Positions 209 through 45,047 are shown, counted from the stretch's first letter. The stretch is 64,000 bases of DNA from Escherichia coli (GCF_013122565.1 NZ_CP053258.1); one strand, 5' to 3'. Notes: generated by a model not told the origin, from the sequence alone. Program-made: numbers and translations.

Positions 209-1620
209 TGCGCGCTCCTTTTTCGCCGCGAAATAGCTACATTTTGATGCGTATCGTTCGGCACTCTGGCAAAGATGAACGCCGGAAGGGCGATGATAAA
301 CGCCATGCTAAGCCAGGTGTACATAAAGACGGTTTGTGTGGTGCCGCTGTCGACGCTGACATGCTGCGAACCAAAAAGTCCCAGCAACAGCCCGGCGATG
401 GTGACGCCGATACTCATCGACAATTGCATAATCATCGACAGCAGACTGTTGCCGCTGCTCGCCAGATTGTCCGGGAGATCTTTCAGCGTCAGGGTGTTCA
501 TGGAGGAGAAACGGGTCGAGTTGACCATCCCTTGTAAAAACAGGACGAACGGCAAAACGTAGTACCAGCCCAACAGAGCGGTAGTCATAAACAACAGGGT
601 GACCAGCGACAGACCCAGCGTGGTCGCTACCAGTACCCGACGATAACCAAAGCGATTCACCACCTGTACAACAATCCGCTTCATCCCCATGCTGCCAAGC
701 ACCATCGGGATCATCATCAGTCCGGCATGAAACGGTGAGAAGCCAAGGCCAATTTGCAGGAAAACCGGCGTCATAAAGGGCAACATGCCGCTACCGATAC
801 GTCCGGCAAAGCTCCCCGCCAGGCCCAGCGAAAAGGTACGAGTGCGGAACAGTTTCAGACTGAAAAGAGCGCGGTTGTTATTTCTGGCGTGCAGCAGATA
901 AAGCACCAGTGCCACCACGCCAACTGCGACCAGGCCAGCAATCGCCAGCGGCGATAAACCTGTACCTTTACTGCCGTCCAGCGCCAGGGTTAATACCGCC
1001 ATGCCAACCGCCAGCAATAAAAATCCGGAGAGATCAAAGCGCCGCGTCTGCATGGTGTAGTTCGGCATTAACATCAGCGTGGCGATCGCGCCGATAATCC
1101 CCACCGGAATGTTGATCAAAAAGATCCAGTGCCAGGAGGCGTATTCCACCAACAGACCGCCGAGCGCCGGACCGAGCAGCGGCCCGACCTGACCGGGTAA
1201 CGTGACAAAGGTCATCGCCGCCATATATTGCTCGCGCGGTACGATTTTCATCACCGTCAACCTGCCGACCGGCACCATCATCGCACCGCCAACACCCTGT
1301 AACGCACGTGCCAGCAACAGTTCGTTCAGCGTGCCGGAAAGCGCGCAAAACAGTGAACCGAGAGTAAACAGCACGATGGCGGTAAAGAAAATATTGCGCA
1401 CGCCGACTTTGTCCGCCAGCCAGCCGCTGGCGGGCAGCATCACCGCCACGGTCAGCACATAAGAGACAATGACCATGTGCATATGCAACGGACTTTCCCC
1501 GAGGCTTTGCGCCATTGAGGGAAGGGCGGTGTTTACGATGGTGGTGTCCAGCGACTGCATAAAGAAGCCGAAAGCCACAATCCACAATTGCCAGCGGGTG
1601 CTGTCGGGAAGATCTGTCAT
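205..1620 (-). CDS. mdtD: MFS-type multidrug efflux transporter MdtD (471 aa)
   Basis: 471-aa ORF in the track, highly hydrophobic multi-TM protein; position directly downstream of mdtC and overlapping baeS as in the known mdtABCD-baeSR operon. Confidence 0.85.
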
Positions 1621-4600
1621 TTACTCGGTTACCGTTTGTTTAGGTTTACGCGAAAAACGCAGCCGCAGACGGTCGAAAAAGAGATACACCACCGGCGTGG
1701 TATACAGCGTCAGGAGCTGACTCATCACCAGACCGCCGACAATGGTGATCCCCAAGGGTTGGCGCAGCTCCGAGCCGTCACCGCCCGACAACACCAGCGG
1801 CAGCGCGCCAAACAGCGCCGCCAGGGTAGTCATCATAATCGGGCGAAAACGCAGCAGACAGGCCTGGAAAATAGCTTCCTGCGGCGTCAGGTTACCGTGC
1901 CGTTGGGCTTCAAGCGCAAAATCGACCATCATAATGGCGTTTTTCTTCACGATGCCGATTAATAGCATGATCCCTATCAGGGCGATTAGGCTGAACGGGG
2001 CATTGAACAGCTCCAGCGCCAGCAGCGCTCCAACGCCCGCCGAGGGCAGGGTGGAGAGAATCGTCAGCGGATGTACGTAACTCTCGTAAAGGATACCCAG
2101 CACGATATACACCGTGGCGATGGCGGCGATAATCAGGATCACCTGCGAGTTCATCGTCTCCTGGAACACCTGCGCCGTGCCGGCAAAACTGCCGCGCACC
2201 GTCGAAGGCACGCCAAGCTGGGTCATTGCGCGGTCGATCGCGGCACTGGCGTCCGAGAGCGATTTCCCGGTCGGCAGGTTGAACGAGATGGTCGAGGCCG
2301 CCGATAATCCCTGATGATTCACCGACAGCGGAGCATTCGCCGGTTGCCATTTAGCGAAATACGACAGCGGGATCGCTTTGCCTTCGTTATTGATAACGAA
2401 CATTTTTTCCAGCGCGCTGATGTCCTGGGTATAGCGCGGATCCACTTCCATCACCACTTTATACTGGTTCATCGGCTGGTAAATGGTCGAGATTTGCCGC
2501 TGACCGAAGGCGTTATTTAACAGGCTGTTGGCGGCCTGTACGTCGATTCCCAGCCGTGCCATGGTGTCGCGATCGTAAACCAGATTCATCTCCGCGCCGT
2601 TATCCTGCTGATCGGAGTTCACGTCCGCCAGTTCCGGCAATGTCGCCAGTTTTTTGCGGATTTTCGGCTCCCATTCGCGCAGTGCCGCCAGGTCGTCGGA
2701 TAACAACGTGTACTGGTAGCTGGCGTTCGACTGACGCCCACCAACGCGAATATCCTGTACCGCCATCAGGAACAGATTCGCCCCCGGTTCTTTCGCCAGT
2801 TTTACGCGCAGACGGTCGATAATTTGCTGCGCTGTTTCGCTGCGTTCGTCGCGTGGCTTGAGGGTGATAAACATCATGCCGCTGTTCACTCGCGAACCGC
2901 CGGTAAATCCGGTGACATTATCCACTGCCGGATCGTCACGGATAATTTTCATGAAATCCTGCAATTTGCCGCGCATTGCCTGAAACGAAATACTCTGATC
3001 CGCCTGTATCCCGCCCATCAGCACGCCGGTGTCTTGTTCCGGGAAGAAGGTCTTCGGGATCGAGATATAGAGCCAGATATTCAAAGCAATGGTGCCAAGC
3101 AGCACCACGCCCACCAGACGGGTATGATTGAGCACCCATTTCAGTGACTTACCATAGCCTTGTTGCAGGGCTACCAACATGCGACCAAAACCACGCAGTC
3201 GCTTTTGCTCGCGCGGCTTGCTGGCTTTCAGCATCCAGCCACACATCATTGGCGTTAATGTCAGAGAAACCAGCAACGAAATACCAATGGCGACAGAAAG
3301 CGTCACGGCAAACTCGCGTAACAGTCGGCCCGGCAATCCGCCCATCAACAGCAGCGGCAGGAACACCGCCACCAGTGACAGACTCATCGACAGCACCGTA
3401 AAGCCGACTTCGCGAGTACCTTGTAGCGCGGCCTGTAGTGGTTTCATCCCCGCTTCCAGATGACGGGCAATGTTTTCCAGCACCACGATGGCGTCATCCA
3501 CCACGAAACCAGTAGCGATGGTGAGCGCCATTAACGACAGGTTATTGAGACTGAATCCGCACAGGTACATCGCCGCAAACGTACCAATCAGCGAAACCGG
3601 CACCGCAACGGCGGGAATAATAGTGGCGCGACCCGAGCGCAGGAATAAAAAGACCACCAGAATCACCAGCGCCACCGAGATAATCAGCGTTTGCTCGACT
3701 TCTTCCAGCGAGGCGCGAATGGTGGGGGAGCGATCCTGAGCAATTTGCAGATCAATCGCCGCCGGAATGGTCTCCTGCAACTCCGGTAATTTTGCCCGGA
3801 TGCTGTCTACCGTCTGGATAATATTGGCTTCCGGCAGTTTGCGGATCATCAGCAAAATAGCCGGTTTGGCGTTGGTCATCCCGGCGTTGCGCACATCCTG
3901 CACTGAGTCGGTTACCGTTGCCACATCGCCCAGACGAACCGCACCACCATTGTTGTAGTGAATAATCAGCGGCTGATATTCAGCGGCGGTTTTCAGTTCA
4001 TCGTTGGTCTGGATCTGCCAGCGGTGAATGCCATCTTCCAGCGCCCCCTGTGGTTTACGTACGTTGGCATTGCTGATGGCAGTGCGTACGTCGTCCAGCG
4101 ACACGCCCTGATTAAACAGTGCTTGCGGGTTCAGCCCGACGCGCACCGCAGGCAGCGAGCTGCCGCCGACATCGACATCACCGACGCCGTCGATTTGAGA
4201 AATCGTCGGAGCCAGCTGCGTCGAGGCAAAATCGTACAGTTCACCTTGCGAATAAGTATCGGACGTCAGCGTGAGGATCATAATTGGCGCATCCGACGGG
4301 TTCGCTTTGCGATAGGTCGGACGGCTGGGCATCCCGCTGGGCAGCAAACTTTGTGCAGCGTTGATCGCCGCCTGCACATCGCGCGCTGCGCCGTTGATAT
4401 CGCGGTCAAAATCAAACTGCAAAATAATGCGCGTGCTGCCGAGCGAACTGCTGGAGGTCATTTCACTGACCCCGGCAATGCGCCCAAGTGATCGCTCCAG
4501 CGGCGTGGCAACGGAAGACGCCATTGTTTCTGGTGACGCACCGGGCAGCGAGGCGCTGACCATAATCACTGGAAAATCGACCTGCGGCAGCGGGGCGACC

Positions 4601-4698
4601 GGCAGCATACGGAAACCCAGTATGCCGCACAGGGTAATGGCGACCGACAGTAAAATCGTTGCCACCGGGCGGTAAATGAAGAGGGCAAAAAACTTCAC
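1621..4698 (-). CDS. mdtC: RND multidrug efflux pump subunit MdtC (1025 aa)
   Basis: 1025-aa ORF with RND/AcrB-like architecture (12 TM, two large periplasmic loops); start abuts mdtB stop; paralogous to the upstream 1040-aa ORF. Confidence 0.9.
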
Positions 4699-7600
4699 TT
4701 ACGCCTCCTCTTCATGACGGGCAAAGCGACTTTTGGTCCACAATGCCAGGCGGTCGAACAGCAGATAAATCACCGGCGTGGTGAACAGCGTCAGCACCTG
4801 GCTGACAATCAGACCGCCGACCATGCCGATACCTAACGGACGACGCAGTTCCGCGCCGACCCCGGTACTCAACATCAGCGGCAGCGCGCCAAGCAGAGCC
4901 GCCAGGGTGGTCATCAGGATCGGACGAAAACGCAACAGACAAGCCTGGTAGATTGCATCGCGCGGCGACATGCCTTGCTCGCGCTCAGCAGCCAGCGCGA
5001 AGTCGATCATCATGATGGCGTTCTTCTTCACGATACCGATCAGCAAAATAATGCCGATAATCGCAATCACATCCAGTTCGCTACCGGCAATCATTAACGC
5101 CAGCAGTGCGCCAACACCTGCCGTGGGTAGCGTCGAGAGAATGGTGATCGGGTGAATAAAGCTCTCGTACAGAATGCCGAGCACGATATACATCGCCACC
5201 ACCGCCGCGACAATCAGCCAGACGGTGCTGCCCAGCGCCGACTGGAAGGCGAGGGTGCTGCCCTGGAACTGCGTGGTGATATCCACCGGCAGATTCAGAG
5301 TCTTTTCGGTGTCCATAATCGCCTGCACCGCATCGCCCAGCGAATAGTTATCCGGCACGTTAAAGGAGATGGTCGTTACCGGGAACTGATCCAGATGGTT
5401 GATGGAAAGCGGCGCAAAACGCTGCTCAATTTTGGCAATTGAGCTTAACGGCACCACGCCACCGTCGCTGCTGGTCAGGCGAATGGTATCCAGCGCCGCG
5501 AGGCCTGGGGTATTTTCGGTGTTGTGCTCCAGCACCACGCGATACTGGTTAGCCTGAGTATAAATAGTGGAAATCAGCCGCTGACCAAACGCGTTGTACA
5601 GGGCGTTATCGACGTCCGCCATGCTGATCCCCAGACGGCTGGCGCTGTCGCGATCAACATTGACATACGCCACCAGCCCTTTGTCCTGCCAGTCGCTGGA
5701 GACATCAGATAGCTGTGGCAGCTGCTGGAGTTTTTCCATCAACTGTGGCACCCAGGTACTGAGCGCATCCAGTGACGTGGCCTGCAAGGTAAACTGGTAC
5801 TGGGTGCGGCTGACCTGAGTATCGATGGTCAGGTCCTGCGTTGGTTGCAGGAAGAGATCGACGCCCGGCACTTTATCCACCGCCGTTTGCAGACGGGCGA
5901 TGACTTTTTGCACCCGATCATCACGTTCATCCAGCGGTTTGAGGTTGATCTGCAAACGCGCACTGTTCAGCGACGGGTTAGTGCCATCAACGCCAACAAA
6001 TGAGGTCAGACTTTGCACTGCCGGATCCTGCAAAATCACGTCCGCGACCTGGCGTTGCCGCTGGGCCATATTGGCAAAGGAGCTGGATTGCGGTGCCTGC
6101 AAAGTGCCCTGAATAATGCCGTTATCCTGTACCGGGAAGAAACCTTTCGGAATGAACACCCACAATAGAACGCTAAGCAGCAGCGTGCTGAGCGCCACGC
6201 TTAAGGTCAGCCACGGATGATTCAGCACTTTCGCAAGTCCCTGACCATAGGCGGCGATTATCCTGTCGAACATTTTTTCCGAGGCACGGGAGAAGCGGTT
6301 CTGTTTACGCAGTGACTCCTGGCTGAGCATCCGCGCGCACATCATCGGTGTCAGGGTCAGCGACACCACGGCTGAGATCAAAATCGCTACCGCCAGGGTA
6401 ATAGCAAATTCGCGGAACAGTCGCCCGACGATATCGCCCATAAACAGCAGTGGGATCAACACCGCAATCAGCGAGAAGGTCAGCGAGATAATGGTAAAGC
6501 CGATTTCACCCGCGCCTTTGAGCGCCGCCGCCAACGGTTTTTCGCCTTTTTCGATATAGCGGGAAATGTTTTCGATCACCACGATGGCGTCATCGACCAC
6601 AAATCCGGTGGCGATAGTTAACGCCATCAGCGTCAGGTTATTGATTGAAAAATCGAGAAACACCATGACCGCGAAGGTGCCGATTAACGACAGCGGCACT
6701 GCGACGCCGGGAATGATGGTCGCCGGAATATTGCGCAAAAACAGGTAGATAATCATGACTACCAGCGCGATAGCCATCATCAATTCAAACTGAGTATCAT
6801 CGACGGATGCGCGGATATTGGTGGTACGGTCAGAAAGTACCGTCACCTTCACCGATTTCGGCAGACTCTCGGTGAGCTGTGGCAGCATCTGCCGGATGCT
6901 GTCGGCGGTGGAGATAATGTTAGCACCGGGCTGGCGCTGAACATTCATCACAATGGCCTGTTCTTTGTTCGCCCATGCGCCGAGCCAGCTGTTTTCTGCA
7001 CCTTGCTCTACGGTTGCGACATCGCCCAGACGAATCGGCGCGCCGTTCTGGTAGGCGATGATTAGCTGGCGATACTCTTCGGCGGATTGCATCTGGTCGT
7101 TAGCGGAAAGCGTAACCGCACGGGAAGGGCCGTCAAGGCTACCTTTAGCCGAGTTAACGTTAGCGCCGGTAATGGCGGTGCGCACGGTTTCGCTGGTCAG
7201 GCCGAGGGCGGCAATCGCCTGAGCGTTAAGTTTGACGCGAACAGCCGGACGCTGGCCGCCGGAAAGCGTCACCAGACCGACGCCGGAAATCTGCGAGATT
7301 TTCTGCGCGACGCGGGTTTCCACCATATCTTCCACTTGCGTCATCGGCATGGCTGTTGAGGTGACGGCGAGCGTCATGATCGGCGGATCTGCCGGGTTCA
7401 CTTTGCTGTAAACCGGCGGGTTAGGCAGATCGCTCGGCAACAAGTTGGTCGCAGCGTTAATCGCGGCCTGTACTTCCTGCTCGGCGACATCCAGCGGTAA
7501 TGTTAGCTGGAACTGCAAAGTGATAACTGACGCACCGCCGGAACTTTGCGACGACATCTGTTTCAGACCAGACATCTGCCCGAACTGGCGTTCGAGCGGC

Positions 7601-7821
7601 GCGGTAACGGCAGAGGTCATGACATCCGGGCTCGCACCTGGGTAGAGCGTGACCACCTGAATGGTCGGATAGTCCACTTCCGGCAGCGCCGAAACGGGCA
7701 GGGCGCGATAACCGATAATCCCGGCGAGTAAGATCGCCACCATCAGCAGCGTGGTGGCCACAGGACGCATAATAAACAGGCGCGACGGGCCGCCTGTGCT
7801 GCTCGGGGGTAACACCTGCAT
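4699..7821 (-). CDS. mdtB: RND multidrug efflux pump subunit MdtB (1040 aa)
   Basis: 1040-aa RND-family ORF; its ATG overlaps the mdtA stop codon by 1 nt (TGATG), indicating translational coupling. Confidence 0.9.
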
Positions 7822-9068
7822 CAGGAGCGTGCTCCTTTTTTCGCGTATTCGCGGCTGGTGGCTTTCTCTTCCGAAGTGGTGGCGCTCTGGGCTTCCACCA
7901 CTTCCACTTTCGCCCCTTCGGTCAGGCGATCAATGCCGTCTGTCACCACGCGATCGCCCGCAGAAATACCTGCGCGGATCACCACTTTCTGACTGTCCTG
8001 AATGCCCGGCGTCACCAGATGTTTGCTGACCTTGTTTTCGCTATTCAGCACCCAGACAAAATGGCCTTCATTGCCCATTTGCAGGGCGGCTGTTGGGATC
8101 ACCACGGCGTTTTGTTCGGTGTCGACTAACATACGCGCGTTAACAAACTGATTGGGAAACAGCGCATCATCCTGATTATTAAAGCGTGCTTTCACTTTAA
8201 TCGTACCGGTAGTGGCATCGATTTGGTTATCGAGACTTAACAGCGTGCCTTCACTTAATTTCTTCGAGTTGGTGCGATCCCAGGCTTCTACCACCAGCGG
8301 TTTTCCGGTTTTTTGCGCCTGCACAACGGTAGCGATATCGCTTTCCGGCAGGGTAAAGACTAAATCGATAGGATGCGTCTGGGTGATCACCACAATCCCG
8401 GAGGTATCACCACTGGAGATTTGGTTACCAACATCAACCTGCTTGAGACCAACGCGACCATCGACTGGTGCGGTGATGCGGCTCCAGTCGAGTTGCAGCT
8501 GTGCGCTGGCGACGCTTGCTTCATCAGCCTTAATGGTGCCTTCGGTTTCACTGACCAGCGCCTGTTGGGCATCCAGTTCCTGACGAGATACGAGATTGGT
8601 TTTTGCCAGTTGTTGATAACGCGCCAGGTCACGGCGGGCGTTGGCGAGCGTGGCTTTATCTTTTGCCAGTTGGCCCTGGGCTTGTGCTAATGCAACTTTG
8701 AACTGGCTTGGGTCAATTTCTGCCAGTAAATCGCCTGCTTTGACCTGCTGGCCTTCCTGGAAATGTAACGCCATCAGTTGACCGTCCACGCGGCTGCGCA
8801 CCGTAACAGTATTAGCGGCGGTAATGGTGCCAAGCCCGGTGAGGTAACGCGGAACAGCCTGTTCTACTGCGGTCGCCGCCTGAACCGGAGCTAATGGGCC
8901 GGCACGCATACCACGGCGACCACCCGCTGGCGATTGCTGCGCTTGTTTCGTCGCCCCAGGGGCTGCACTCTGGGAGTCATTGCGGCCTTGCCAGAACCAG
9001 AATGCGGCGATGGCGGCGATAACCACCACGATTACGATTACCCAACGGGATTTATAACTGCCTTTCAT
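7821..9068 (-). CDS. mdtA: Membrane fusion protein (periplasmic adaptor) MdtA, 415 aa
   Basis: Track ORF 7821..9215 is 464 aa; I place the start at the internal ATG at 9068 ([16 protein letters not shown]...), which gives the expected 415 aa with a signal/TM N-terminus. The 49 upstream codons are probably not translated. Confidence 0.8.
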
Positions 9069-9139: not shown

Positions 9140-9276
9140 TGGAGGAATTATGAAACACTATCGGGAATCGTCTGAATGGCGGGCACATTTGCGAGCACGC
9201 ATCCAGTAATAACACAGGAAACTATTTTATCTACGCGTTAGCGATAGACTGCTTGCATGGCGAAAGGAGGTAAGCC

Positions 9277-9420
9277 GACGATTTCAGCGGGACGCTGAAA
9301 CGGGAAAGCCCCTATAAGGAAAGGGTCATGATGAAGTGGATCATCATCGTGGTGCTCTTAGTCATAAGCTTCCCGGCTTACTAAGACTACCAGGGCGGGG
9401 GAAACCCCGCTCTACCCTCA
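9277..9420 (-). ncRNA. sib: Sib-family antisense sRNA (antitoxin) overlapping ibs copy 1; boundaries approximate
   Basis: Minus-strand sigma70-like promoter: TTGACA (plus 9450..9455 reverse-complemented), 17-nt spacer, TAATTT; the transcript would run antisense across the whole ibs ORF. Length set to about 140 nt by analogy with the known SibA/SibB RNAs. Confidence 0.6.
9328..9384 (+). CDS. ibs: Ibs-family type I toxin peptide, 18 aa (MMKWIIIVVLLVISFPAY)
   Basis: ATGATGAAG... ORF preceded by AAGGAAAGGG Shine-Dalgarno; hydrophobic peptide with the Ibs family signature MMK...VISFPAY. Confidence 0.8.
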   Translation: MMKWIIIVVLLVISFPAY

Positions 9421-9594
9421 CTCCTGAAATTATGCCTTCACGATAAGATTGTCAATCCGCAGGCTTTGTAGTCTGCGATCCTGCCAGCAAATATTCTTTG
9501 CGAGTCGTTACGCAATAATCACACTGGAAACTATTTTATCCGCAAGTCAGCGATAGACTGCATACAGGGCGAAAGGAGGTAAGCCGACGATTTC

Positions 9595-9738
9595 AGCGGG
9601 ACGCTGAAACGGGAAAGCCCCTCCCGAGGAAGGGGCCTTAAATAAGGAAAGGGTCATGATGAAGATACTCATCATCGTGGTGCTCTTAGTGATTAGCTAC
9701 CCAGCATACTAAGACTACCAGGGCGGGGGAAACCCCGC
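9595..9738 (-). ncRNA. sib: Sib-family antisense sRNA overlapping ibs copy 2; boundaries approximate
   Basis: Same minus-strand TTGACA/TAATTT promoter arrangement (TGTCAA at plus 9768..9773) as in copy 1. Confidence 0.6.
9656..9712 (+). CDS. ibs: Ibs-family type I toxin peptide, 18 aa (MMKILIIVVLLVISYPAY)
   Basis: Second repeat unit; same SD spacing and peptide architecture as copy 1. Confidence 0.8.
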   Translation: MMKILIIVVLLVISYPAY

Positions 9739-9939
9739 TCTACCCTCACTCCTGAAATTATGCCTTCACGATAAGATTGTCAATCCGCAGGCTTTGTAGT
9801 CTGCGATCCTGCCAGCAAATATTCTTTGCGAGTCGTTACGCAATAATCACAGAGGAAACTATTTTGTTCACGCGTTAGCGATAGACTGCATTCAGGGCGA
9901 AAGGAGGTAAGCCGACGATTTCAGCGGGATGCTGAAACG

Positions 9940-10083
9940 GGAAACCCTCTCCCGGAGAAGAGGGCTTTTAATAAGGAAAGGGTTATGATGAAGCACGTCA
10001 TCATACTGGTGATACTCTTAGTGATTAGCTTCCAGGCTTACTAAGAACACCAGGGGGAGGGGGAAACCTCTCCCTAACCCTCA
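9940..10083 (-). ncRNA. sib: Sib-family antisense sRNA overlapping ibs copy 3; boundaries approximate
   Basis: Minus-strand promoter with TTGACA (plus 10113..10118 reverse-complemented) and TAATTT after a 17-nt spacer. Confidence 0.55.
9985..10044 (+). CDS. ibs: Ibs-family type I toxin peptide, 19 aa (MMKHVIILVILLVISFQAY)
   Basis: Third repeat unit; ORF one codon longer than the other two and ending FQAY instead of FPAY. Confidence 0.8.
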   Translation: MMKHVIILVILLVISFQAY

Positions 10084-10264
10084 CTCCTGAAATTATGTCA
10101 CTCCGCCCTTAGTGTCAATCGACGGCTCTCCGTTCTTGCGAGGCGAATAGCAAAATTTTCTGCGCCGCCGGGCCTAATTCTGAAAGTTTCTTCGTTTGCT
10201 CTTATTTCATTATTGCAATCGGTATGATACCGGACCTCGATAATTCTCTAAGAAAGGATTTCTT

Positions 10265-10924
10265 ATGAGCGAACAAATCACGTTTGCCACCAGCGATTTT
10301 GCCAGTAACCCGGAACCACGTTGCCCCTGCATTTTGCTGCTGGATGTTTCTGGTTCGATGAACGGTAGACCCATTAATGAACTTAACGCCGGATTGGTTA
10401 CCTTTCGCGATGAGCTGCTTGCCGATTCGCTGGCCTTAAAAAGAGTGGAACTCGGTATTGTGACGTTCGGCCCGGTGCATGTGGAACAACCATTTACCAG
10501 CGCCGCTAATTTTTTCCCGCCCATCCTGTTTGCCCAGGGCGATACACCAATGGGGGCCGCCATTACCAAAGTCCTGGATATGGTTGAGGAGCGCAAACGT
10601 GAGTATCGTGCAAATGGTATTTCGTATTATCGCCCGTGGATTTTCCTGATCACCGATGGCGCTCCAACCGATGAGTGGCAGGCTGCCGCCAACAAAGTGT
10701 TTCAGGGGGAAGAAGATAAGAAGTTTGCCTTCTTTACCATCGGTGTGCAGGGGGCGGATATGAAGACGCTGGCACAAATCAGCGTTCGTCAGCCTTTGCC
10801 ACTGCAGGGATTACAATTCCGTGAACTGTTTAGCTGGTTATCCAGTTCACTGCGTTCGGTTTCCCGCTCCACGCCGGGAACGGAAGTTGTGCTGGAAGCA
10901 CCAAAAGGCTGGACGTCAGTGTGA
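10265..10924 (+). CDS. yegL: von Willebrand factor A (vWA) domain protein YegL, TerY-like (219 aa)
   Basis: 219-aa ORF with a MIDAS-type motif ([11 protein letters not shown]) near the N-terminus; stop overlaps the start of the next gene (GTGA). Confidence 0.85.
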
Positions 10925-11682
10925 GCTGGCGTCTGGTCTATGCATCAACCGTTGGAACGTCGCACATCAGCGCGGACTTGCCTTGCCAGGATGCCTGCCA
11001 GATGCAGGTTGCCTGGTTAAATGACCAGCAGCCATTATTGTCGGTATTTGTCGCTGATGGCGCAGGCAGTGTCTCGCAGGGTGGCGAAGGCGCGATGCTT
11101 GCCATCAATGAAGCGATGGCTTATGTGTCGCAAAAAGTGCAGCACGGTGAATTTGGACTCAATGATATCCTCGCCACGGATATTGTGCTGACCGTTCGTC
11201 AGCGACTTTTTGCCGAGGCGGAAGCCAAAGAATTAGCAGTTCGCGATTTTGCCTGCACGTTTCTGGGATTGATTTCATCGGCTAACGGCACCTTGATTAT
11301 GCAGATTGGCGATGGCGGCGTGGTGGTGGATTTTGGTCACGGTCTGCAATTACCGCTTACGCCGATGGTGGGTGAATATGCCAATATGACGCATTTCATT
11401 ACCGATGAAGATGCCGTTTCCAGACTGGAAACTTTCACCATCACTGAGCGTGTGCATAAAGTTGCAGCATTTACGGACGGTATCCAGCGACTGGCGTTAA
11501 ATATGTTGGATAATTCTCCGCATGTGCCTTTCTTTACCCCGTTTTTCAATGGACTGGCGTCAGCAACGCAGGAACAACTCGATTTATTACCTGAATTGTT
11601 AAAGCAGTTTTTGTCCAGCCCGGCGGTAAACGAGCGTACGGATGATGATAAAACGTTGGCACTGGCGCTGTGGGCAGAGTGA
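10921..11682 (+). CDS. yegK: PP2C-family Ser/Thr protein phosphatase YegK (253 aa)
   Basis: 253-aa ORF starting at a GTG that overlaps the yegL stop; PP2C-like motifs ([24 protein letters not shown]). Confidence 0.8.
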
Positions 11683-11691
11683 GTTTCTCAT

Positions 11692-11719
11692 GGCGGTTGA
11701 AGACAACAATTCAACCGCC
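11692..11719. terminator. Hairpin between the convergent genes yegK and yegJ, possible bidirectional terminator
   Basis: GGCGGTTGAA-GACAACAA-TTCAACCGCC: perfect 10-bp stem with an 8-nt loop; the flanking U-tracts are weak. Confidence 0.5.
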
Positions 11720-11746
11720 AGTTTAAGCAATCAATATAACGGCTGA

Positions 11747-12208
11747 TTAGCGAACTAATTTTGCTCTTAGCTCGTCGGCTTCTTCTTTTGGATAGGTGAC
11801 CAATAAAGGATCAATGGTATAACCGCCGTAAATTTTATCCCCGCGCGTATACATCCAGTCTGAAATATCTTCTTTCTTGATTTTCCACTCCTGGCCATAT
11901 TCTACGTTTGTAACAATACCAGGGTCATTGCTGATTACGCCAATAAACATGCCGTTAGAATAAGTGACATCCGTAAGCCAGAAATGCTCGGTTCTTCCGT
12001 GATCGGTTATCGGGGCTTTGACTGCGAAAGTATCGGCATCTTTTTTATTCATAACCTCGATGAATTTATCGGTTTCTTTCCGCGCATGTTTAATCGCGTC
12101 AGACATCGCTTGTTTATCATAACCTCCTGTCACTAACGTATCCGAAACTTCACAATAGCCTGCGGTAGTAAAACATAGCAGGCTCAACATGAGTAATATC
12201 TTTTTCAT
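11747..12208 (-). CDS. yegJ: Secreted/periplasmic protein YegJ, unknown function (153 aa)
   Basis: 153-aa ORF with an N-terminal signal peptide (MKKILLMLSLLCFTTAGYC); position between yegK and yegI. Confidence 0.75.
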   Translation of the reverse strand: MKKILLMLSLLCFTTAGYCEVSDTLVTGGYDKQAMSDAIKHARKETDKFIEVMNKKDADTFAVKAPITDHGRTEHFWLTDVTYSNGMFIGVISNDPGIVTNVEYGQEWKIKKEDISDWMYTRGDKIYGGYTIDPLLVTYPKEEADELRAKLVR

Positions 12209-12405
12209 TTTTTCTCCAGAATCTCTGTGTAGTAAAAGTTAGCAAAACCTGTGGAAGTTAATCATTATCAGGTTGGAATTGAATTGTATCCTGATGAAAT
12301 TACATTATCATTTTTATTCTTGAGTGGGCTCTTCCCATATAGAAATAATTATAATGGGCAGTGTTATTATTCATTGAAATATAATATTACTGCCCTTGAA
12401 ACATT

Positions 12406-14352
12406 ATGAAGACAAATATAAAAGTATTTACATCAACAGGTGAAATGACCACTCTCGGTCTTGAACTGGGCAAAGGTGGCGAAGGTGCGGTTTATGATAT
12501 CGAGGAGTTTGTCGATAGCGTCGCTAAGATTTATCACACGCCGCCACCCGCCTTAAAACAGGACAAACTTGCCTTTATGGCTGCGACAGCTGACGCGCAG
12601 TTGTTGAATTATGTCGCCTGGCCGCAGGCAACGCTTCACGGTGGACGAGGCGGAAAAGTTATCGGTTTTATGATGCCAAAAGTTTCTGGTAAAGAACCGA
12701 TTCATATGATCTATAGCCCGGCACATCGTCGCCAGAGTTACCCTCATTGTGCGTGGGATTTTCTACTCTATGTTGCGCGCAATATTGCTTCATCTTTTGC
12801 TACGATTCACGAGCACGGGCACGTCGTGGGTGACGTAAACCAGAACAGCTTTATGGTAGGTCGCGACAGCAAAGTGGTGTTGATTGATAGCGACTCCTTT
12901 CAGATTAATGCCAATGGCACGCTGCATTTATGCGAAGTCGGCGTGTCGCATTTTACGCCGCCAGAGCTACAAACCTTGCCATCATTTGTCGGCTTTGAAC
13001 GCACCGCGAATCACGATAATTTTGGCCTTGCGTTGCTGATTTTTCACGTCTTGTTTGGTGGGCGGCATCCTTATTCTGGTGTGCCGCTTATCTCTGATGC
13101 GGGGAATGCGCTGGAGACGGATATTGCCCATTTCCGTTATGCCTACGCGTCAGATAATCAGCGACGTGGTTTAAAACCGCCGCCACGATCGATTCCGCTG
13201 TCGATGTTACCGGGCGATGTTGAAGCCATGTTTCAGCAGGCATTCACGGAAAGTGGCGTGGCAACCGCGCGTCCGACGGCAAAAGCGTGGGTAGCGGCAC
13301 TTGATTTACTACGCCAACAGTTAAAGAAATGTACCGTTTCGGCAATGCATGTTTACCCCGGTCATTTGACTGACTGCCCGTGGTGTGCGCTGGATAATCA
13401 AGGCGTTATCTATTTTATTGATCTCGGCGAAGAGGTCATTACCACCAGTGGTGATTTTGTGCTGGCGAAAGTCTGGGCGATGGTGATGGCGTCAGTAGCA
13501 CCGCCAGCATTGCAATTGCCATTACCCGATCATTTCCAACCGACTGGCCGGCCGCTTCCTTTAGGCCTGTTACGGCGCGAATACATCATTCTGATTGAGA
13601 TCGCACTGTCAGTGTTATCGCTGTTGCTTTGCGGCCTTCAGGCAGAACCGCGTTATATTATTTTGGTTCCTGTGCTGGCGGCTATCTGGATTATTGGCAG
13701 CCTGACAAGCAAAGCGTACAAAGCAGAAGTCCAGCGACGAAGAGAGGCTTTTAATCGCGCGAAAATGGACTATGATCATTTAGTCAGCCAGATCCAACAA
13801 TTGGGCGGGCTGGAAGGTTTTATCGCCAAACGGGCGATGCTCGAAAAAATGAAGGACGAAATTCTCGGGTTACCGGAAGAAGAGAAACGCGCTCTGGCAG
13901 CACTTCATGACACTGCAAGGGAACGGCAGAAGCAGAAGTTTCTGGAGGGATTTTTTATTGATGTTGCCTCTATTCCCGGCGTTGGCCCTGCGCGTAAAGC
14001 GGCGTTACGGTCCTTTGGTATTGAAACAGCAGCGGATGTTACCCGTCGTGTCGTTAAGCAAGTGAAAGGGTTTGGTGATCATCTGACCCAGGCAGTTATC
14101 GACTGGAAAGCAAGTTGCGAACGCCGTTTTGTGTTCAGGCCGAATGAAGTGGTAACGCCAGCAGACAGACAAGCGGTAATGGCGAAAATGACCGCCAAAC
14201 GACATCGGCTGGAATCGGCGTTGACTGTCGGCGCGACAGAGTTGCAGCGATTCCGCCTTCATGCTCCAGCACGGACCATGCCGTTGATGGAACCTTTACG
14301 TCAGGCGGCAGAAAAACTGGCTCAGGCGCAGGCAGATTTAAGCCGCTGCTGA
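12406..14352 (+). CDS. yegI: Protein-kinase-like protein YegI (648 aa)
   Basis: 648-aa ORF; N-terminal region has glycine-rich GLELGKGGEGAVY and catalytic-loop-like HGHVVGDVNQNSFMV...IDSDSF motifs; central hydrophobic segment; C-terminal coiled-coil-like region. Confidence 0.8.
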   Translation: MKTNIKVFTSTGEMTTLGLELGKGGEGAVYDIEEFVDSVAKIYHTPPPALKQDKLAFMAATADAQLLNYVAWPQATLHGGRGGKVIGFMMPKVSGKEPIHMIYSPAHRRQSYPHCAWDFLLYVARNIASSFATIHEHGHVVGDVNQNSFMVGRDSKVVLIDSDSFQINANGTLHLCEVGVSHFTPPELQTLPSFVGFERTANHDNFGLALLIFHVLFGGRHPYSGVPLISDAGNALETDIAHFRYAYASDNQRRGLKPPPRSIPLSMLPGDVEAMFQQAFTESGVATARPTAKAWVAALDLLRQQLKKCTVSAMHVYPGHLTDCPWCALDNQGVIYFIDLGEEVITTSGDFVLAKVWAMVMASVAPPALQLPLPDHFQPTGRPLPLGLLRREYIILIEIALSVLSLLLCGLQAEPRYIILVPVLAAIWIIGSLTSKAYKAEVQRRREAFNRAKMDYDHLVSQIQQLGGLEGFIAKRAMLEKMKDEILGLPEEEKRALAALHDTARERQKQKFLEGFFIDVASIPGVGPARKAALRSFGIETAADVTRRVVKQVKGFGDHLTQAVIDWKASCERRFVFRPNEVVTPADRQAVMAKMTAKRHRLESALTVGATELQRFRLHAPARTMPLMEPLRQAAEKLAQAQADLSRC

Positions 14353-26053: not shown

Positions 26054-26092
26054 CAGTGTATTGGTAGCTAAAAAGCCAGGGGCGGTAGCGTG
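26054..26092 (+). promoter_or_regulatory. JUMPstart element with ops site (GGCGGTAGCGTG) in the wza leader
   Basis: CAGTGTATTGGTAGCTAAAAAGCCAGGGGCGGTAGCGTG about 180 nt upstream of wza; the GGCGGTAG core is the RfaH-recruiting ops motif. Confidence 0.8.
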
Positions 26093-40431: not shown

Positions 40432-40532
40432 TAGTTGAATAATCAACCGGAATAAATCTCCGGCAAATAACGACAAAAACAAAATTGGCCGCTTCGGTCA
40501 GGGCCAACTATTGCCTGAAAAAGGGTAACGAC

Positions 40533-44849: not shown

Positions 44850-45047
44850 CGACAACGGTTGCCGGGTGCAGCGTAAAACGCCTTATCCATCCTACGGTTC
44901 TGTGCTCGGGACCTGTAGGCCTGATAAGACGCGTCAGCGTCGCATCAGGCACTGAATGCCGGATGCGGCGTGAACGCCTTATCCGTCCTACGTCTCTGTG
45001 CTCGGGACCTGTAGGCCTGATAAGACGCGTCAGCGTCGCATCAGGCA
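44850..45047. repeat. BIME/REP cluster: two direct ~70-bp copies separated by a PU-type REP
   Basis: CCTTATCC(A/G)TCCTACG...TGTGCTCGGGACCTGTAGGCCTGATAAGACGCGTCAGCGTCGCATCAGGC occurs twice, separated by GCCGGATGCGGCGTGAACGCCTTATCCG. Confidence 0.8.

Follow-up and report, generated by a model that had tools for sequence, protein, structure and literature searches.

The region at positions 9188–10150 of the window, the 64,000-nucleotide stretch of Escherichia coli DNA (GCF_013122565.1, NZ_CP053258.1) that was analyzed here, comprises three head-to-tail ibs/sib units between mdtA and yegL. We read it, with a probability of roughly 0.93, as the three-unit form of the chromosomal mdtA-yegL ibs/sib locus, i.e. 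as three tandem type I toxin-antitoxin modules. The three-unit array as such is already known, and a considerable proportion of the complete E. coli genomes have it annotated automatically. The sole unusual detail of the array is a 19-bp deletion in its first unit, which was seen in this genome only among the collections searched.

Organization of the ibs/sib array between mdtA and yegL

Tandem Repeats Finder reported a single array at 9314–10097 with a period of 328 bp, 2.4 copies and 89% matches, and a repeat search of the window returned three-copy repeat families with spacings of 309/328 and 328/332 bp. Together with the alignment of the units, these repeat families place unit 1 at 9188–9496 (309 bp, 19 bp below the other units), unit 2 at 9497–9824 (328 bp) and unit 3 at 9825–10150 (~326 bp). 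The latter is the ibsA/sibA unit, which adjoins yegL and shares 98% identity with the ibsA unit of K-12. On the left, the array is flanked by mdtA on the minus strand (7821–9068, with the start codon at 9068), and on the right by yegL on the plus strand (10265–10924); both genes were taken from the ORF list and from the matching E. coli records. A 1.3-kb query spanning the locus gave matches in 5419/5426 complete E. coli genomes, and the annotation beneath the best matches consists of mdtA, two to four CDSs labeled “type I toxin-antitoxin system Ibs family toxin” including ibsA, and yegL. Synteny with both flanking genes extends over more than 5000 E. coli genomes, in which two, three or four Ibs CDSs are annotated. 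Both the mdtA-yegL position and the ibsA unit beside yegL conform to the ibsA/ibsB locus of E. coli. The three tandem units proposed between these genes by the first-pass annotation are thus borne out by the Tandem Repeats Finder result, the repeat families and the flank matches.

Each unit carries a short ORF on the plus strand. The ORF of unit 1 (9328–9384) encodes the 18-residue peptide MMKWIIIVVLLVISFPAY behind an intact Shine-Dalgarno (SD) sequence, AAGGAAAGGG; that of unit 2 (9656–9712) encodes MMKILIIVVLLVISYPAY, also 18 residues, and the ibsA ORF of unit 3 (9985–10044) encodes the 19-residue MMKHVIILVILLVISFQAY. All three peptides match existing RefSeq proteins exactly. The unit 1 peptide is identical to the product of the second unit in O157:H7 EDL933 (WP_012767741.1, “Ibs family toxin”), the unit 2 peptide to WP_012767742.1, which is the product of EDL933 unit 1 and of SM107 unit 2, and the unit 3 peptide to K-12 IbsA (WP_010723109.1). 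Comparison with the translated annotated CDSs confirmed the plus-strand Ibs-like peptides of 18–19 residues exactly as they had been given from the sequence at first reading. Between the ORFs of units 1 and 2, four synonymous third-position changes were found (GTC ATA versus GTG ATT; CCG GCT versus CCA GCA), which alter the RNA pairing and leave the peptide unaltered. The idea that the units are non-coding intergenic repeats bearing short ORFs by chance, for which the length of just 18–19 codons might speak, was rejected as practically untenable, because every unit retains the ORF with its SD and start codon, also in other genera, and several differences between the units are synonymous; in addition, raised Ibs expression is lethal to E. 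coli (PMC2943612), and Salmonella IbsA causes growth arrest according to a preprint (bioRxiv 10.1101/2025.05.26.656083).

On the minus strand, the Rfam family SIB_RNA (RF00113) was matched once in each unit, at 9313–9455 (140.9 bits, E = 2e-30), 9641–9783 (142.2 bits) and 9970–10118 (149.5 bits). All three matches are full length (model positions 1–147) with E-values near 1e-30, and scores of 141–150 bits against a gathering score of 56 are far beyond chance; this substantiates the earlier suggestion of an antisense Sib-like RNA gene in every unit. The body of the Sib1 antitoxin RNA was placed at 9303–9419, with the 5′ end (9419) set by homology to K-12 SibB and with a 3′ limit (9303) that is no more than the counterpart of the SibB 3′ end, since the 5′ arm of the terminator is missing. 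Sib2 is a SibB-like RNA of 136 nt at 9612–9747, whose ends were mapped from K-12 sibB and whose assignment is supported by Rfam and by its fold. Its listed best matches are 100% identical across all 136 nt and are annotated alleles in other E. coli, and in 2010 E. coli records the best match reaches at least 99%. Sib3, at 9939–10082 (144 nt), corresponds to SibA according to Rfam, its fold and the alignment with K-12 SibA, from which it differs by a single base. As is characteristic of the family, the three Ibs ORFs, each with its SD, lie wholly inside these Sib transcripts.

The Sib promoters were delimited by the hexamers TTGACA and TAATTT, separated by 17 nt, on the minus strand at 9427–9455 for Sib1 (−35 at 9450–9455, −10 at 9427–9432; Rfam model positions 1–29), at 9755–9783 for Sib2 (−35 at 9778–9783, −10 at 9755–9760) and at 10090–10118 for SibA (−35 at 10113–10118, −10 at 10090–10095). 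These hexamers are located 7 nt upstream of the positions homologous to the curated 5′ ends of K-12 SibA and SibB, which marks them, by sequence, as the putative sigma-70 promoters of the Sib RNAs. The first-pass annotation had described them as strong. The hexamers are indeed present in all three units, but the sequence does not justify that adjective: the −35 element is perfect, the −10 element agrees with the consensus at only three of six positions, and a generic promoter and terminator scan did not call them. The same scan also left the minus-strand terminators of the Sib RNAs (P7) uncalled, its −10 and T-run criteria being stricter than these sites. As it misses genuine P7 terminators, its negative results carry little weight.

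Copy number and allele order in E. coli and related genera

In the curated record of K-12, two units are listed at this locus, sibA (144 nt)/ibsA and sibB (136 nt)/ibsB, in agreement with the first-pass annotation. Genome-wide, K-12 MG1655 carries five ibs/sib copies (PMC4147584, PMC2943612), and seven Ibs genes were counted in O157:H7 Sakai in a study that also described lineage-specific duplications (Fozo et al. 2010, PMC2887945). Unit 3 of the window has the IbsA peptide of K-12 without any change and a Sib RNA one base off SibA; identity to the K-12 ibsB unit amounts to 87% for unit 1 and 92% for unit 2. K-12 IbsB (MMKLLIIVVLLVISFPAY) looks like a mosaic of the two, resembling unit 1 in the target recognition domain TRD1 and at the C-terminus, and unit 2 in TRD2 and the N-terminal part. 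The two loci share position and flanks, promoter, SD and the full antisense overlap; they differ in the number of units (two in K-12 versus three in the window) and in the terminator 5′ arm that is missing from Sib1 of the window.

We estimated the copy number at this locus from samples of the complete E. coli genomes. Based on PGAP annotation, at least three units are present in ~35–55% of the 5426 genomes, O157:H7 EDL933 among them. This range reflects two 40-row samples that are somewhat discordant (~56% versus ~40% with at least three units). Among 40 evenly spaced records, the locus showed at least three Ibs CDSs in 22/40 and two in 17/40. The other sample made use of the inter-unit spacer, which is expected to occur once less than the number of units at each locus and was found at 7870 places in 5288 genomes; here, 24/40 genomes had one spacer, 8/40 had two and 8/40 had three. 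Both of the three-spacer genomes that were inspected (n = 2) have four annotated units.

Among the species-representative genomes, a single SIB unit beside mdtA was found in E. albertii, E. whittamii, Escherichia sp. MOD1-EC7003, three Citrobacter species, Salmonella diarizonae, two Kluyvera species and one unclassified Enterobacteriaceae genome. Two SIB units at this position were found in Escherichia sp. E1V33, in a record named “E. coli E69” and in Pseudocitrobacter. As a general trend, related genera mostly carry a single unit beside mdtA. This bears on the earlier proposal that the three units of the window represent a copy-number expansion. With one unit in most relatives, the term is appropriate for long-term growth of the array; within E. 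coli, however, three units are not uncommon and the array simply varies. The three-unit state is best described as one allele of a variable tandem array of two, three, four or more units.

The order of the alleles varies between strains as well. In EDL933 the peptide starting with IL precedes the one starting with WI, whereas in the window WI comes first and IL second. The order of the window (WI..SFPAY, IL..SYPAY, IbsA) is that of units 2–4 in the four-unit array of WP8-S18-ESBL-07. The three- and four-unit arrays of O157:H7 EDL933, SM107, Res13-Lact-PEB21-38-A and WP8-S18-ESBL-07 share the locus, the 328-bp period and the peptide alleles with the window, but lack the 19-bp deletion and differ among each other in allele order. 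A further tandem pair in K-12, ibsD/sibD-ibsE/sibE, resembles the window in the arrangement of neighboring modules and in the concentration of its 14 sequence differences (over +1 to +115) in TRD1 and TRD2. It is located elsewhere, between yqiK and hldE, and has a period of 376 bp and peptides of 19 residues. Likewise, the ldr/rdl (LDR) loci contain tandem type I toxin-antitoxin modules with a cis-encoded antisense RNA in one intergenic region (PMC2887945, PMC4147584), but belong to an unrelated sequence family with a 35-residue toxin, and the overlap of Rdl concerns the 5′ UTR and not the entire ORF.

Target recognition and probable insulation between the modules

The K-12 Sib RNAs are ~140 nt long and span the ribosome-binding region and the ORF of the respective ibs gene (Han et al. 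2010, PMC2943612). Recognition begins at two segments, TRD1 (+46 to +68, within the ORF) and TRD2 (+99 to +115, in the ribosome-binding region); swapping TRD1/TRD2 between SibC and SibD switches specificity, and each K-12 Sib reportedly represses its cognate ibs only, with ibsA as the single exception (PMC2943612). The ibs mRNAs are more abundant once the gene for RNase III has been deleted, which suggests that degradation follows duplex formation (PMC4147584). By homology with these systems, each unit of the window would give rise to a short ibs mRNA from the plus strand, encoding a hydrophobic membrane toxin of 18–19 residues, and to a Sib sRNA of ~136–144 nt from a sigma-70 promoter on the minus strand, fully complementary to the ibs ORF and ribosome-binding site. 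In analogy to K-12 SibC, each Sib may first contact its own ibs mRNA via two variable segments, with TRD1 pairing with the 3′ half of the ORF and TRD2 with the SD/start region; the pairing would then block translation and expose the duplex to RNase III. Transcription, toxicity and cognate-only repression in the window are in this respect extrapolated from the K-12 homologues.

Sib1–3 were aligned with K-12 SibA–E, and the TRD coordinates of SibC were mapped on this alignment. As in other paralogues of the family, the RNAs of the window can be told apart by their variable TRD1 and TRD2. Over +1 to +115, Sib1 is separated from Sib2 by 14 differences, five of them in TRD1 and five in TRD2; Sib1 and Sib3 differ at three and six positions in these segments, and Sib2 and Sib3 at four and three. 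The diversification of peptides and target-recognition sequences noted at first reading therefore holds, as seen from these TRD differences, the synonymous ORF changes and the differing peptides. K-12 SibD and SibE, which are reportedly non-cross-reacting, likewise show 14 differences over +1 to +115 (five in TRD1 and three in TRD2). Given this equal divergence, mutual insulation of Sib1 and Sib2 is probable, and sequence divergence in TRD1 and TRD2 may be what prevents cross-reaction among neighboring modules.

A second candidate for a specificity element was the GC hairpin GCGGGGGAAACCCCGC, found at 9395–9410 in unit 1 and at 9723–9738 in unit 2. In unit 3 its place is taken by GGGAGGGGGAAACCTCTCCC, identical to K-12 SibA. 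The first-pass annotation had pointed out this hairpin and its divergence in unit 3 correctly, but had treated it as a separate element between the ibs stop codon and the sib promoter that could alter antitoxin specificity. It is instead part of Sib: it lies downstream of the Sib 5′ end (~+10 to +25), coincides with the paired Rfam model positions 45–62 and, according to the Rfam structure line and the fold, forms the 5′-proximal stem-loop of Sib1 on the minus strand, lying at the same time in the 3′ region of ibs1. We take it to be the stem-loop named P2 by Han et al. The same study placed specificity in TRD1 and TRD2 and found the loop contacts of P2 to be non-productive (PMC2943612), so that the hairpin is unlikely to set specificity, and we rejected this role.

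A 19-bp deletion in the terminator region of unit 1

An alignment of 11 units and of their upstream regions located the 19-bp deletion in unit 1 at the junction 9313/9314. It went unremarked in the first-pass annotation. The missing segment, CCCGAGGAAGGGGCCTTAA, makes up the 5′ arm and the loop of P7, the Sib terminator, and at the same time part of the ibs 5′ UTR, which is 19 nt shorter in ibs1. As the Rfam model ends before P7, the SIB_RNA match of unit 1 is still full length. In the folds of Sib2 and Sib3, P7 (minus strand, 9614–9639 and 9942–9967, respectively) appears as an 11-bp GC hairpin followed by the U-rich tail UUUCCCGUUU; in Sib2, UUUCC comes after the hairpin. The hairpin was not found in the Sib1 fold, where no U tract follows the next hairpin downstream. 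By contrast with this unit, P7 is present in 18/18 other units, namely units 2 and 3 of the window and those of 13 further genomes, altogether from five genera. These 13 genomes cover Escherichia (E. albertii, E. whittamii, two other species and “E. coli E69”), Citrobacter, Salmonella diarizonae, Kluyvera, Pseudocitrobacter and one unclassified Enterobacteriaceae genome. The Sib1 promoter, P1–P6, TRD1, the TRD2 core and the ibs1 ORF with its SD are intact. Judged by its sequence, unit 1 is an atypical Ibs/Sib member in its terminator hairpin, and the locus carries every other feature of the family that sequence can reveal.

The deletion junction was absent from 5426 E. coli genomes when searched with a 36-nt query centered on the junction; the equivalent query for the intact unit 2, which served as positive control, matched 4472 genomes. 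Nor did the junction, as an exact 25-nt pattern, occur in 100,044 species-representative genomes or in the metagenome contigs. If ibs1 is expressed, loss of the terminator might have been expected to be harmful, and the persistence of this loss suggests a mild effect, compensation or an assembly error.

For the function of Sib1, the binding properties of ProQ are of relevance. The FinO domain of ProQ binds intrinsic terminators and needs the terminator hairpin together with the U tail, and SibA binds full-length ProQ with a Kd of 2.4 nM (PMC7367173). Without the 5′ arm of its terminator, Sib1 is predicted to be unterminated, or else less stable and a poorer ProQ ligand. Possible effects of the deletion may hence include read-through toward mdtA, a lower stability of Sib1 and the loss of FinO-domain binding.

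One tentative explanation, which we hold to be the most plausible of those considered for unit 1 while still unlikely in itself, is that this unit is a decaying or defective module with an unstable or heterogeneous Sib1. It would be silent, or harmless through low ibs1 expression or through cross-repression by Sib2 or other Sib RNAs. The absence from Sib1 of a hairpin conserved in all 18 other units across genera is in line with this explanation, as are the requirement of the FinO domain for hairpin and U tail (PMC7367173), the shortened ibs1 5′ UTR and the identical runs of up to 41 nt that Sib1 and Sib2 have in common. However, all the remaining parts of the unit listed above are intact, and as the TRD1 sequence is sufficient for repression of ibsC (Han et al., PMC2943612), a read-through Sib1 could still work. 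Cross-repression by Sib2, in turn, is made less likely by a divergence of the two RNAs as large as that of the non-cross-reacting SibD and SibE.

A less probable explanation is that the deletion is not real and stems from an error of sequencing or assembly at a GC-rich palindrome within a tandem repeat, the true locus being a standard three-unit array. GC hairpins in repeats are typical sites of assembly errors, and the absence of the junction from the E. coli genomes, the species-representative genomes and the metagenome contigs is what an artefact would produce. On the other hand, the deletion is clean with exactly aligning flanks, and palindromes are true deletion hotspots as well. Moreover, the lineage of the window is only ~97–98% identical to any complete E. 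coli genome, so that unique variants are to be expected.

We consider it doubtful, and somewhat more so than an artefact, that unterminated Sib1 transcription reads into mdtA and thereby couples a constitutive antitoxin promoter to the mdtABCD-baeSR efflux operon. The arrangement would permit this, as Sib1 and mdtA share the minus strand, with mdtA starting 351 nt downstream of the Sib1 start. In addition, between 9303 and 9068 neither the scan nor the folds revealed a terminator-like site on this strand, and the sole remaining hairpin, UUUCAGCG-UCC-CGCUGAAA, has no U tract. Such read-through is deduced from the sequence, however, and the transcript could instead be stopped by Rho or cut short by RNase processing; the terminator scan, which also misses the genuine P7, is a weak negative at this point. 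A similarly low probability is assigned to the broader case that the deletion is real and Sib1 naturally terminator-less, resulting either in run-on into mdtABCD-baeSR or in lost ProQ binding and stability with a partial derepression of ibs1.

Irrespective of the fate of unit 1, our reading of the region as the three-unit form of the mdtA-yegL ibs/sib locus has little wider import by itself, as the ibs/sib family, its tandem organization and its variable copy number are all documented. It places the window within a highly variable E. coli tandem array, with two to at least four units and a shuffled allele order, at a position where related genera mostly have one unit. The deleted hairpin is conserved across five genera and is a reported binding place for ProQ-type proteins. 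If the deletion is real, it would provide a ready-made test of what the terminator contributes, and the strain would represent a natural experiment on the role of the conserved Sib terminator.

Divergence of the window from complete E. coli genomes

We searched the window's mdtA–mdtD region (1500–9000) and yegL–yegI region (10265–14352) against 5426 complete E. coli genomes, where the highest identities reached 97.9% and 96.8%, respectively, and no record in this collection matched either region at 99% identity or above. In the nearest species-representative loci of other Escherichia species, mdtA was at most about 94% identical to that of the window. On these identities, the window appears to derive from an E. 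coli-like lineage with no representative among the complete genomes, for example one of the cryptic clades or a lineage resembling Shigella.

RNA elements and transcription signals

Two plus-strand JUMPstart RNA elements (Rfam RF01707, ~57 bits each) were located at 26054–26092 and 50337–50375, presumably preceding the gene clusters for colanic acid and O antigen, as on the K-12 map. Between them lie an algC RNA motif (40479–40528, plus strand, 77.3 bits) and an naRNA4 (CssrE) match (44918–44988, minus strand, 72.9 bits), both identified with Rfam.

Next to the ibs/sib array, the promoter scan returned a minus-strand promoter-like site (TTCAGA-18-CATAAT, 9147–9176), which is situated some 80 nt upstream of where mdtA translation starts and may represent the mdtA promoter. 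Any read-through transcript from Sib1, the antitoxin RNA of unit 1, would cross this site. At the other end of the array, the promoter/terminator scan scored a plus-strand terminator-like site (9945–9964), consisting of the palindrome of the unit-3 P7 terminator hairpin followed by CTTTTAATAA, within the ibsA 5' UTR and immediately upstream of the Shine–Dalgarno sequence. The palindrome could act as a bidirectional terminator or attenuator restricting ibsA expression, and such a limitation would agree with the reported viability of cells lacking SibA (PMC2943612).

History of the mdtA-adjacent ibs/sib array

The K-12 IbsB/SibB pair shares features with two different units of the window. Its first target-recognition segment (TRD1) and the Ibs C-terminus (SFPAY) agree with the unit-1 type with one difference, while TRD2 of SibB agrees with the unit-2 type, again with one difference. 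From this comparison, K-12 IbsB/SibB looks like a mosaic of the two types, and this appearance fits an origin of the two-unit state of K-12 by unequal crossover inside a longer array.

Among species-representative genomes, an ibs/sib unit beside mdtA is kept, mostly as one copy, in Escherichia, Citrobacter, Salmonella diarizonae, Kluyvera and Pseudocitrobacter. One unit was present at 10 of the 13 loci (L011, L028, L037, L015, L022, L025, L044, L034, L039 and L030) and two at the other three (L032, L020 and L017). The conservation across genera therefore indicates that the position is old; tandem growth to two to four or more units is mainly a trait of E. coli.
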